Source of the DNA: Octopus sinensis | Taxonomy: Eukaryota | Assembly (NCBI RefSeq): GCF_006345805.1 | Contig: NC_043007.1 | Coordinates: 46,624,001-46,688,000, forward strand | Reading direction: 5' to 3' | Length of the DNA stretch: 64,000 nucleotides | The notes under the pieces: generated by a model | Told to the model about the DNA's origin: nothing | Seen by the model: the letters and a program-made list of their open reading frames with translations, nothing else | Database searches by the model: none | In this document: positions 25,041 to 34,455 of the stretch, piece by piece | Layout of the letters: each line of letters starts with the position of its first letter | Position numbering within the stretch: position 1 is the first letter of the stretch | Translations under genes and position numbers: made by a program

Positions 25041-25808
25041 AATATAATATAAATATAAAAAAAATAAAACTCATTATTGTAATATAATAAAAAAAAACAG
25101 AAGCTCATGTATGAAGTTAATGTGTTTAAATGTACACTGTATTTTATATGCATAATATATAGTCTTTTGAGTAATTTTTTTATACGCTAGGCCACTGGTA
25201 GTAAACATTTCTAAAATCTTTATTACCCTGATATTAATTATGTATAATGATTTCTGGAAGATGCGTTCGAGGAAATTACCGGCATCTTTTTGCAGCCGCC
25301 AAAATAAAACTACGCTTGCAATTAAAATGTATAAGCAAAAGGTACATGCTGGATTGGCCCCGTGTTTATATGTTTAATCTTGGCGTACCTGTTGACCACG
25401 ACTTCACCTAGCAAATTATTTCATTTGCTAAAATAAGTCAGAAACCATGATTAGTGATTTGGGCTTTAACTGTTCTTTCTAACCTAAGGGATTCCTATGA
25501 TGGAAGCCTCTTAATGTGTTTAAATTTACACTGTATTCTATATGAATAATATATAGACTATTGACCAATTTTTCTATACGCAATGCCACCGATATTATAA
25601 ATTTCTACAATCATTATTACTCTGATATTATTAATTATGTATATATATATTATATATATATATATATATATATATATATATATATATTATATATATATGT
25701 AATCCGAAGTATACAGTATTAGTTCTATATTTAAGAGATGAAGAATTATGTACATTATTTACATTATTTACATTTGACGGATATTTGTCCTCATCTTCTT
25801 TGCTCTTA

Positions 25809-25851
25809 ACACAACGTTTCGAGTGATATACCCTCCTGGTTCACCAGGTGT
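25809..25851 (-). ncRNA. Minimal hammerhead motif in the SINE tail, core mutated
   Basis: ACAC-CUGGUGA-...-GAAAC-GUU-GUGU: stem I ACAC/GUGU, palindromic ACGU stem III; A6 changed to G and stem II decayed. Confidence 0.62.
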
Positions 25852-25914
25852 ATTGGGAAAATTTCGAACCTGGATTTTCATTCCTAAGGTATTTATCGAT
25901 ATAGTTATCATTTT

Positions 25915-26125
25915 ATTATTATTATTTATTATTATTATTATTATTATTATTATTATTATTATTATTATTATTATTATTATTATTATCATTATTATTGTTA
26001 TTATTATTATTATTATTATTATTATTATTATTATTATTATTATTATTATTATTATTATTATTATTATTATTATTATTATTATTATTATTATTATTATTAT
26101 TATTATTATTATTATTATTATCATT
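25915..26125. repeat. (ATT)n microsatellite
   Basis: Direct reading; related tracts at 27371-27533, 28376-28441, 29136-29305, 30089-30294, 32637-32763 and 32865-32950. Confidence 0.97.
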
Positions 26126-30294: not shown

Positions 30295-32637
30295 CAGTAG
30301 TATATTTTTTATATCGTGCTTTCACTTCACTACCGAACGCAGCTCTGTGTGCCTGGGGTATGTGCTGTGATTTGTTGTGATGCTCTGATGGTTATTGTAT
30401 GGAAAGTGTTCTGCGTAGGATGTGTGCAGTGCCTAGTAGTGCAATTTTCTGTATGTTATATGTGTGTTTGGAAGTCCTGGTGTTTTTGTTATGTATTTGT
30501 CTGAATATTTTTTTATCATGCCTAATGCACCTATTATGATAGGAATTGTTTCTGTTTTTAGATTCAACATTCTGGTTACCTCTATTTCCAGGTCTTTTTA
30601 TTTTGAAAGTTTCTCCATTTCTTTTAGAGAACGTTGTCATCCGCTGGTATTGATACATCAATTCGAAAACATATTTTCTTCATGATCTCTCACAACTATA
30701 TGTGGTCTGTTGGCCTTAATGTCTCTATCTCTGTGTATTGGCATATCCCAGAGTATGGTTGCTTTCTCGTTTTCTGTGACCTTTTCTGGTGTGTGCCTAT
30801 ACCATCTTTTTTCTGTTGTTATTCAATAATGTTGGCATAGTTTCCAGTGTATATAGGTCCCAACTCTGTCGTATCTGTGAATATATTCCTTCTTAGCCAG
30901 GACTGGGCAGCCAGAGATAATATGATTTATTGTTTCTTGTCCATCTCCAAATATTCTGCAGTTACTTGTAATATTTCTTTCATTACATGTTTTTGGTAAT
31001 TTCTGGTGGGGAGGCTTTGGTCTTGTGCTGCAATTAAAAATCCTTCTGTCTCTGATTTGAGTCCTGAGCTTCTCAACCATTGTTGGGATTTTTCTTTGTT
31101 TATTTCTTTTGCATTTAGTTTAGTCCAGTATTTGCCATGAAGGGGCTTTTCTTGCCATCATTTTATCATGGTTCGTTGCTGTTCTATTTTTAGTTTGGAT
31201 TTCATTTGTTTTATAGCTTTTGTTGTTTCTTCTTCTTCTTCTTCTTCTTCTTCTTCTTCTTCTTCTTCTTCTTCGTGTTCTTCTTCTTCTTCTTCTTCTT
31301 CTTCTTCTTCTTCTTCTTCTTCTTCTTCTTCTCTTCTTCTTCTTCTTCTTCTTCTTCTTCTTTTCTTCTTCTTCTTCTTGTTCTTCTTCTTCTTCTTCTT
31401 CTTCTTCTTCTTCTTCTTCTTCTTCTACATATTTGTTAGGTGGTATGATTTCTTTTTTGTATTTTTCATCTTCCTTAAATATTGAGAACAGTTTTTGTTT
31501 TTCTCCTGTTTTGCCGCTATTTTATCAGTTTTTCTTCCTTCTGAAGTAGATATTTTTGCAGTCCTATGGTGGTTATTTTATAGTAGTTTTCCAGCTGTAT
31601 AAGGCCTCTACCACCATCTATACGTTGTATATATAGCCTTTCTATGTCAGATTTTGGGTGATGCATCCTAGATCCTGTCATTATTTTACTTGTTTTCCTA
31701 TCTATTTTGGTCAGTTCATTTAGTGTCCAGTTAAGGATATTGTAGCTGTAACATATAACTGGGACGGCTAAAGTGTTGATACCTATTATCTTGTTTTTAG
31801 CATTGAGCTCTGTTTTCAGTATTGATCTACCTCGTCTATAATATTCTTTTTTATTTTCTCTTTCATTTTTGTGTGCTGTGTCTTATCTAGTTCATGGATT
31901 CCTAAGTATTTGTAAGTTTGGCTTTGGTCTAATTCTTTTATTTCATTGGTTTTTTTATAGTGTGATGTTGCTACTCTTAACTAGTATTCCTCTTTTCAGG
32001 GTTACTTTGGCGCATTTCTCTAATCCAAATTTCATATCTATTTCTTTCGTAAATCCATGAACTGTCTTTAGTAGTGTTTCCAGCTGTTTGTCATTTGTAA
32101 CGTATAGTTTTAGGTCATCCATATATAAAAGGTGGCTGATAGTTTTGCCGTAACATTTATATCCGCATCCAGTTCTGTTTAGCATATCCGAATAGAGGTG
32201 ACAGTGCCAAGCAGAAAAGGAGTGGAGAGAGCGTATCTCCCTGGAATATTCCTCTTCTAATGGGGATGGCGTTGGTTTCCACAAGTCCCTCTTTTGTTTG
32301 GAGCTGTAGCACTGTTTGCCATTTATTCATAGAGTGTCCTATGTACTTTATAATTGTTGGTGCAATTTTGTTTATGGCTAGTGTTTCCAGAATCCATGTG
32401 TGGGGGATGCTATCAAACGCCTTTTTGTAGTCGATCCAGGCCATACTGAGGCCTTTCTTCTTTCTGTGGCTGTCTTCAGTTATGGCTTTATTGATCATTA
32501 GTTGATCTTTACAGCCATATGAGCCTTTGCGGCATCCTGTCTGCTCTTCTGGAAACAGGTTGTTTTCGTCCGGGTGCTTGTTCAATCTTTGCGATATTAC
32601 TGCAGTAAATGTTTCGTACATTGTAGGGCGACAGGTT
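30295..32637 (-). mobile_element. 5'-truncated R4/Dong-clade LINE, subfamily B (RT, zinc knuckle, RLE), pseudogenised
   Basis: ITCRPTMY...EEQTGCRKGSYGCKDQLMIN...WIDYKKAFDSIPH...GIFQGDTLSPLLF, LYMDDLKLY, WQEKPLHGKYW, CRIFG..QETINHIISGC, ALLGTAHILRRTLSIQ*; flanked by (AAT)n. Confidence 0.95.
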
Positions 32638-32836
32638 ATTATTATTATTGTTGTTATTATTATAATTATTATTATTATTATTATTATTATTATCATTATT
32701 ATTATTATTATTATTATTATTATTATTATTATTATTATTATCATTATTATTATTATTATCATTCAGGTCACTGCTTAGAATCGAACTCGAAATCTTGGGG
32801 CTAGTAGCCCGCGCTCTTAACCACTACACTATATGC

Positions 32837-33085
32837 TCGAGTTCGATTGCAAGCAGTGACCTGAATAATAATAATGATGATAATAATAATAATAATAATA
32901 ATAATAATAATAATAATAATAATAATAATAATTATAATAATAATAACAATATCGAAAAATACCTCAGGAATGAGAACCCATTATCGAAATTTTCCCAAGA
33001 CACCTGATGAAAGCTGGGAGCCGAAACTGTGTTAAGAACAAACAAGATGAGGACAATTATACGTCAAAGGTAAATAATATAAATA
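32837..33085 (+). mobile_element. Inverted 5'-truncated copy of the tRNA/hammerhead SINE
   Basis: tcgagttcgattgcaagcagtgacctg(aat)n-atcgaaaaatacctcaggaatgagaacc...gatgaggacaattatacgtcaaaggtaaataat mirrors 32790-32762 and 25905-25760. Confidence 0.88.
33000..33032 (+). ncRNA. Minimal hammerhead motif, stem III partly deleted
   Basis: ACAC-CUGAUGA-AAGCUGGGAGCC-GAAAC-U-GUGU; intact CUGAUGA and GAAA, but it lacks the GU seen in the other copy. Confidence 0.68.
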
Positions 33086-34455
33086 AAGTATACAGTATTC
33101 TATATCCGTCATGGCTGAATCGGTTTCGCGCTGGGGTACATCTTAGTGTTAGGTAACAATCCTATTATATGGCCCTACGCTCCTGAGAGGTATCAGGTAT
33201 TTAATGAAATATGGTAACCGATCTCTATTGTTGGAGGTTAAGTGACACATCCAGTTTGCGGTTGTTGTGGGAAAAGGATGAAATGAACCGAGTAGGAGAT
33301 TTAGTTAAGAGTTATGTCCTTTGGTACCGAGACAATGTCACTGGGTTGGTTTTGCTGTACGTCGGTAAGAGATATTATGAAGTGTTTGCGGTTGGTATTT
33401 TTGTGGAAGTGGGGTACGTGTAGTGGTACTGTACGTATAACTTTTGCAGGGGGTGTAGGCATCCTTTACTGTGTTTGCTAGTATGTTTTCTTTCTCTATT
33501 GGTTACATATATTTAAAATAGATCTCCTAGGTGCGTGATACACCGATATTGTCGTGGTCCTCAATAATATTCATGTTGAATATATTCTGCTGTGTGATCC
33601 TGCAAAATTGTCTGCGATCCATATTGGTCTATAACGTAATGCAAACAGCACATCTATTACAAGGAAAAAAAAAAGAAAAAACATGAAGCACGAATTTGTT
33701 ACATGGGAGTGGCAAGGAAACTAACAAAATCTGAACAGATTATATACCAACTGGCAAGTTACATCTCAATACTGTATGTTCAACACGAATATTTTAGAAA
33801 TAAATTACTCGGAGAAACTATATGTATCGAAGTAAGAAAAGGAAACAGACAGAAATACCTTATAAAGGACATACCACACCATCTCCTCTGCGGCAAGCAT
33901 TGCTTATACTTTCGTGTAGATCAACACATTATCATTCAGATTATGTCGGAAAGGGCTAATACCCTCTGACCAATGAGTATTGCTCAGTAAAGAGAACAAA
34001 GCCTAAGAGATTACAACATATGCTTGAAACAATTTATATGAGAAATCGGATATATATATATATATATATATAATATATTTATATATATATTATAATATGA
34101 ATTAGCAGCAGCTCGAAAGATACCGACAATATCGAACACAACATATCTTGTGTCAGTGTTCGATATTCTTTAAATATAGTTGTATGTAAATATATGTTGC
34201 GTGTGTGTGTGAATGTATGTGTGTGTGTGAATGTATGTGTGTGTGTGCGTTGTGTAAGAGAGAAGCGTATGTAGCATGGAAACTCTGCTAGATTTTTCCC
34301 CTTTCATCTGCCTCTGACTACACAGTTCCGACCATATTTCGTGGTTATAAATTGGTCTCTGAATAAGTAAAATTATAGTTATACGTAAATAGATACAATA
34401 TCCTTAAAAAGCCACGCAAGTGTATGTGTGTGTGTGTGTGTGAGTGTAGAATGAA

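Follow-up and report, generated by a model that had tools for sequence, protein, structure and literature searches.

The question raised by this locus is whether a tRNA-headed, hammerhead-tailed repeat of Octopus sinensis is a short interspersed element (SINE) that borrows the machinery of a Penelope-like element (PLE), as the original prediction proposed, or a part of a PLE itself. The repeat lies in a 64,000-nucleotide stretch (NCBI RefSeq assembly GCF_006345805.1, contig NC_043007.1, positions 46,624,001 to 46,688,000; referred to as the window). A 14-mer found at only two places on either strand of the whole 64 kb flanks the structure as a target-site duplication (TSD). From left to right, it encloses a tail on the minus strand, an (ATT)n tract interrupted by 6.5 kb of inserts, a tRNA-like head on the minus strand and, on the plus strand, a copy beginning just before the B box and running through (AAT)n into a second tail (Table 1); the two tails align at 80% identity. 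Since the two 14-mers coincide exactly with the boundaries and no further copy exists in the window, the predicted single insertion with inverted arms and a 14-bp TSD was borne out, as was the inverted, 5′-truncated partner. The insertion itself is dead.

An autonomous element of Penelope/Poseidon type in this genome has the repeat unit as its pseudo-long terminal repeat (pLTR), a conclusion that is much firmer than any reading of the mechanism. This element consists of the head, (AAT)n, an ATG, an open reading frame (ORF) with reverse transcriptase (RT) followed by GIY-YIG, a stop codon, ~27 nt, and then the head, (AAT)n and the ORF start again. The supposed tail is the ATG plus the first ~50 ORF codons, in frame with the ORF, and the peptide it encodes is similar to the N-terminal end of an intact 847-aa relative (44% over 45 aa, E 1e-5). 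Among 30 loci selected by their ORF, the head directly followed the ORF end in 27 (24 of 27 loci when a four-fold duplicated locus was counted once), the exceptions having either the tail only (L080) or neither head nor tail (L087 and L090), and GIY-YIG-type coding sequence adjoined or neared the head at L024, L018, L045 and L037. Long copies repeat the unit at their 5′ end and read straight into the ORF, and in two full-length copies, L134 and L144, the head comes first. Conversely, the tail directly followed the head in 24 of 30 head-selected loci, confirming that the two belong together.

The coding capacity of the family was likewise that of a PLE. Pfam returned an RVT_1 match on L071, the family profile matched TERT among solved structures, and the longest open frame (551 aa) contains RT followed by endonuclease motifs. 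Relatives share the same Pfam set and four of them additionally match PF01541; Pfam gave no GIY-YIG match on the family's own pieces, where the motif is one that we take to be GIY-YIG. No zinc-finger-like motif linking RT and endonuclease, as Neptune and Nematis have, was seen by eye in the 551-aa frame.

When short and ORF-linked copies were compared, 85 head-start tails and 31 ORF-linked tails showed no diagnostic difference (divergence 4.7% vs 5.4%), and the commonest shared indels preserved the frame and were present in both classes. A search for an independent SINE with the same head and another tail found none, and 217 of 231 distinct head matches with a complete 3′ part continued into the microsatellite. 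Set against the SINEBase definition (PMC3531059; here and below, comparisons with published work refer to portions of the cited texts), the unit is short and has a tRNA-derived head with A and B boxes, but it is entirely the pLTR of an autonomous element instead of a non-autonomous lineage distinct from its partner, and that partner is a PLE with a PLE-type footprint instead of a LINE (long interspersed element). The anticipated PLE machinery was thus found in an autonomous element whose ORF start is the tail, while a separate SINE with a borrowed PLE tail is not supported as the main account, given the pLTR architecture, the coding nature of the tail, the PLE footprint, and the shared divergence and variants. 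Most likely, the apparent "SINE" is a stub of its parent element and not a separate parasite.

The insertion footprint was counted over 90 loci, picked in genome order, which gave 94 core matches; an inverted partner and a mapped tail were present in 49 rows (one locus occurring twice). One long and one short end were present in 43 of these 49 rows. Exact flanking repeats of 9-14 bp accompanied 26 of the 49 pairs vs 61 of 2,352 mismatched flank pairs, two or three of the matches lying in simple repeats or off the boundary, which argues that the TSD is not due to chance. The family therefore displays the inverted 5′-truncated copy, the one-sided tail of 30-40 nt and the short TSD by which PLEs are recognised. 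The target site in the window (33086-33105) also shows a likeness, ~16 nt long and with a 2-nt gap, to the reverse-complemented 3′ end of the element, which might possibly reflect homology-aided priming; priming by the Anolis element PAc is reported not to need homology (PMC11167929).

Merging the two window tails reproduced the family-majority hammerhead exactly, in line with the minimal type I motif originally proposed, and both copies in the window are damaged (Table 1). The family majority is complete, with CUGANGA and GAAA cores, stems I and II, a palindromic 15.2-16.2 segment and an NUH triplet; among its non-CpG core positions, the free N7 varies most, and its 34-nt core has 1,551 exact genomic copies (reversed control, 0). 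Rfam returned no hammerhead match on the window and family loci, and minimum free energy folding of one family hammerhead, as monomer and as dimer, formed stem II but not the catalytic fold. The motif lies inside ORF codons ~12-25. Because the 3′ ends of copies lie past the GUU site, by ~50-100 nt, and the copies read through it, the copied RNA was uncleaved, and the hammerhead was ruled out as the maker of the 3′ end; the self-cleaving 3′ module of the original prediction was accordingly dropped.

Two variants of this region were seen. A 3-nt in-frame deletion of the cleavage triplet (majority columns 87-89) occurs in ~34 of 233 tails, short and ORF-linked alike, and may stem from slippage or from a cleavage-dead master. 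A linked pair, involving the free N7 and one downstream site, is present in both arms at L044, L052 and L220, with each variant also found in ORF-linked copies, and judging by these shared bases a second master is likely.

Alignment of the head majority to the genome's own tRNAs gave tRNA-Arg(TCT) as best match with A and B boxes in register (z 7.2, drawn among 15 distinct tRNAs from 30 loci, so that the isotype is not settled). With the arms of a pair counted as separate copies, 65 of the 79 copies that reach head position +10 end within -15 to +10, as compared with 19/98 in the 26-nt bin before and 1/14 in the bin after. Genome-wide, a 21-mer of the head has 3,847 exact matches and one lying ~50 nt upstream has 934, and the upstream probe was not less conserved than the head probe (19/39 vs 9/28). 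In six copies, L144 among them, the sequence begins precisely at A(-2) and the upstream arm of a short palindrome at the head start is missing, which favours a real RNA end; the opening of a hairpin could yield the same. No tRNA head was called by ARAGORN beside 40 of 80 metagenome PLE loci and no A/B-box pattern was found over all 80, a weak negative since ARAGORN also misses this family's own head. A repeat with a different body carries heads 70-72% like this one (L006 and L180) and is, by this resemblance, a candidate donor SINE. At L264, seven tRNA-Cys-type genes lie within 3 kb, four of them spaced 155-156 bp.

Absence of TTTT (T4) runs was tested as a prediction of RNA polymerase III (Pol III) transcription. 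The 2,396-nt sense-strand majority over the ORF contains none, where 2.7 were expected under synonymous shuffling (P 0.032) and 3.9 with Phe codons also redrawn (P 0.012), and single copies of the family have 0.43 T4 per kb (75 loci, 108 kb). As controls, we used the 40 of 80 related metagenome PLE loci with an open frame of at least 450 aa. All 40 control ORFs contained T4, at 1.1-1.2 times their own null, with a mean of 3.4 per kb in the 22 whose T content is 25% or less.

Together, we lean towards reading the locus as a single old insertion in which two pLTR stubs of the autonomous PLE stand head to head, the tRNA-derived head of this PLE being likely an internal Pol III promoter; Pol III drive from the head is plausible, with the 5′ pile-up and the T4 depletion as indirect support. 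The RNA would start at or just before the head and run through the TTTT-free unit. By analogy with PAc, the element's protein would nick both target strands ~12-14 bp apart, and, as in Anolis Poseidon, reverse transcription would start at two internal sites within the ORF's first ~150-185 nt, one per strand, leaving one long and one short end. A start at the 5′ copy of the site would yield a short cDNA that reaches back to where the RNA begins, hence a SINE look-alike, while a start at the 3′ copy would yield truncated copies bearing the ORF; some short copies were perhaps re-copied in trans. The hammerhead would probably serve RNA processing or translation instead of 3′ end formation, and the Pol III RNA would be translated independently of a cap. 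R4/Dong-like LINEs later inserted into (AAT)n. Possible, though decidedly tentative, is the bolder proposal that an autonomous coding Penelope exchanged Pol II for a tRNA-derived Pol III promoter, purged terminators from a ~2.7-kb unit and has its uncapped RNA translated.

Several observations weigh against Pol III transcription from the head. Rfam and ARAGORN call no tRNA in it, at the window or at family loci, and the counted 5′ ends are not independent, as arms of one pair entered separately. Most junction copies are fold-backs through the palindrome at the head start, and Adineta pLTRs with TATA/Inr (initiator) motifs also have 5′ palindromes, so the pile-up of 5′ ends need not mark a Pol III start. 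The T4 signal is modest, the lowest control having 0.48 per kb and one of 40 controls reaching P ≤0.03, and the test sets a majority sequence against single copies of 29-45% protein identity. Moreover, a TTTT lies upstream of the hammerhead in 22 of 233 tails, and the variant creating it is common to both window arms, which would mean that the template was transcribed through TTTT or that the arms were converted.

One rival is a passive head, in which a tRNA SINE head and (AAT)n were captured into the pLTR of an element transcribed by Pol II, the 5′ pile-up arising by fold-back, or annealing of two cDNAs, at the palindrome. The palindrome with an AC or GT loop at most junctions fits this account, as do the likeness to the L006/L180 heads and the TTTT in both window arms; 5′ pLTR palindromes and self-priming are described for Adineta Penelope (PMC3846280), and D. 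virilis Penelope has a LINE-like internal promoter (PMC2377424). We nevertheless consider it unlikely, as it predicts neither the lack of T4 over 2.4 kb nor, hairpin opening aside, the six A(-2) ends without palindrome arm, and would make the coincidence of the pLTR start with tRNA position 1 accidental.

Less probable still is a true SINE lineage that arose from the pLTR and spreads mainly from its own short Pol III masters with PLE protein supplied in trans. Head-start copies are ~4-6 fold more numerous than ORF-linked ones, and the unit joins a promoter-like head to the region that the Anolis Poseidon protein needs in cis (PMC11167929). Weak hints are the 22 non-CpG variants shared by the arms of 53 pairs (7.6 with partners shuffled, and at most 16 in 1,000 shuffles), a non-CpG stop or ATG loss common to both arms in two pairs, and a +1 insertion in 10 short copies and in 0 of 31 ORF-linked ones. 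Against such masters stand the matching divergence and frame-preserving indels of short and ORF-linked copies described above and the presence of the head, which is not SINE-specific, in the autonomous element; only ~9% of variants are common to the arms, and conversion could also produce that. It is scarcely credible that left tail, head and right copy are unrelated insertions with a 14-mer that is coincidental or partly element-derived: 7 of its bases do recur where the end of the element is read in reverse complement, and the left tail and head are 6.7 kb apart, but the 14-mer marks both boundaries exactly and nothing else in the window, the long and short ends follow the family rule, the arms share two uncommon variants, and inserts in (AAT)n occur at other loci.

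The family is large and looks old and inactive here. The tail 21-mer has 7,506 exact genomic copies and was matched exactly by 93 of 223 sampled tails, from which roughly 18,000 tails can be estimated; copies are ~5% diverged from the family majority, and no intact ORF was present among the 150 best RT matches listed. Runs labelled with five organisms contain the sequence, as do contigs of runs presumed to be RNA, which reveal neither start, strand nor level. Contigs from three of the four runs examined join the ORF end to the head, and read-depth steps in four DNA runs, which are not copy numbers, agree with the head boundary; no relative of the element was found in viral contigs. One head-bearing locus appears four times within ~0.9 Mb of a single contig (L239, L240, L242 and L243), through segmental duplication or assembly redundancy. 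The sampled loci, like the window copy, are all solo or head-to-head, and they include no head-to-tail tandem retrozyme units; no genome-wide search for tandem arrays was made.

The Schistosoma SMalpha/Sjalpha repeats carry a tRNA-type Pol III head. They are also short, SINE-like and equipped with a type I hammerhead, but their hammerheads are canonical and arranged in tandem arrays (PMC8490949), in contrast to the unit here, a terminal repeat whose autonomous PLE has been identified. Metazoan non-LTR retrozymes are likewise short hammerhead units related to PLE pLTRs and are proposed to use PLE machinery, but they form head-to-tail tandems giving circular RNA, unlike this solo or head-to-head family, and the main texts describing them hold no mention of Pol III or a tRNA head that we could find (PMC7229834; bioRxiv 10.64898/2026.07.22.740005). 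With the Penelope/Poseidon elements Anolis PAc (PMC11167929) and Adineta Pen2/Pen2a (PMC3846280), the family shares a single ORF of RT plus C-terminal GIY-YIG, a pLTR that includes the first codons, a hammerhead overlapping the ORF start, the inverted 5′-truncated pLTR, the one-sided 30-40 nt tail, the short TSD and copies of uncleaved RNA; in Anolis Poseidon, the two internal RT start sites define the optional tail. What sets it apart from them is a pLTR opening with the tRNA-derived head, with its A and B boxes, and (AAT)n, together with a sense strand free of T4 runs, whereas Adineta pLTRs carry TATA/Inr motifs (PMC3846280) and the D. virilis element a LINE-like internal promoter (PMC2377424).

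The hammerhead motif itself shows no difference from the minimal type I hammerheads of metazoan PLEs (PMC4209133), which also have a 4-bp stem I, an unpaired base before a long stem II, a palindromic ACGU and no loop 3, and which occur mostly as single motifs, in truncated PLEs, or as opposite-strand pairs 100-700 bp apart. A Pol III promoter derived from a small RNA is also found within the terminal repeat of TRIMp3 (Cassandra, Helenus, Ajax), but these are non-autonomous LTR elements, whereas the head here sits in an autonomous PLE (PMC10886601). Their autonomous partners are argued to need Pol II, Pol III suiting only short, non-autonomous elements (PMC10886601).

Octopus SINEs named OK, OR1 and OR2 were reportedly described as tRNA-derived by Ohshima and Okada in 1994; they share such a head with this family, which lacks a CORE-type body. 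Identity with OR2 is unlikely, as OR2 is listed as a CORE SINE (PMC4758252). PLE hammerheads, inverted stubs, tails and TSDs, hammerhead-bearing SINE-like repeats, PLE-derived retrozymes, and non-autonomous LTR repeats with Pol III heads are all in print. The A/B-box tRNA-derived pLTR head, the 5′ ends piling at it and the T4-free 2.4-kb majority apparently are not; in the titles, abstracts and text passages covered, we found no description of a tRNA-headed PLE pLTR or a PLE-mobilised SINE, although Repbase, Dfam, SINEBase or supplements may hold the family.

The accepted view is that autonomous retrotransposons depend on Pol II, R2 relying instead on co-transcription by Pol I. A coding PLE driven by Pol III would, if confirmed, be an exception among them, and both the transcription start and the purpose of the hammerhead in PLEs would become testable. 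Internally starting reverse transcription would let the same RNA shed thousands of promoter-bearing stubs, so that a SINE could arise directly from a PLE with no capture event in between. Annotation is affected too: roughly 10,000 or more PLE termini would be classed by tools as tRNA SINEs, in a type of genome with a large, mostly unclassified SINE fraction (PMC13282606).

Table 1. Features of the insertion, in window coordinates.
Feature	Position	Strand	Remarks
Left TSD, 14 bp	25707..25720	+	family TSDs 9-14 bp
Left arm, pLTR 3′ part	25721..25905	-	first codons of PLE ORF, ATG at 25881
Optional PLE 'tail' extension, ~35-40 nt	within 25721..25905	-	makes the left arm the long end
Minimal type I hammerhead, left copy	25809..25851	-	A6>G in core, stem II changes
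(AAT)n tract, left arm, tail-side part	25906..26125	-
Nested R4/Dong-like LINE inserts with restriction-like endonuclease	26126..32635	-	later, in (AAT)n; foreign to the PLE
(AAT)n tract, left arm, head-side part	32636..32763	-
tRNA-derived head (A box + B box), pLTR 5′ start	32762..32836	-	from ~head position +2
Inversion junction	32836/32837
Right arm, 5′-truncated head	32837..32863	+	from just before the B box
(AAT)n tract, right arm	32864..32951	+
Right arm, first PLE ORF codons	about 32950..33085	+	ATG at 32970; short end, without extension
Minimal hammerhead, right copy	33000..33032	+	9-nt deletion in stem II/loop; cleavage triplet lost (2 nt of GUU)
Right TSD, 14 bp	33086..33099	+

The nested inserts consist of LINE 3′ ends and a 5′-truncated RT-zinc finger-endonuclease copy (30295-32635), presumably R4/Dong-like by their motifs. 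This label also draws on PMC3774820. Of the solved structures, it is R2 proteins that their RT matches best (E 3e-13, with L1 at 3e-4). All LINE pieces lie in (TAA)n on a single strand, and they arrived after the PLE insertion; the pLTR (AAT)n is also a recurrent R4/Dong-like landing site elsewhere (L002, L027, L101, L109, L116, L121, L124 and L238). A 1.8-kb tandem duplicate among them (26656-28440 vs 28424-30229, 93% identity) may be an assembly artefact, since many of its differences resemble single-base homopolymer indels. The 5′ end of an R4/Dong-like 3′ fragment further contains a 143-bp tandem duplication (27087-27373 and 28854-29138), the first block being 100% identical, and long (CTT)n/(GAA)n runs occur within the R4/Dong-like coding region (31227-31426, 28132-28345 and 29913-30057).

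Elsewhere in the window, a 125-nt direct repeat lies to the left of the insertion (25117-25241 and 25511-25635; 84% identical, 394 bp apart), and positions 54700-55181 hold 2.6 tandem copies of a 184-bp unit from a different abundant repeat family.

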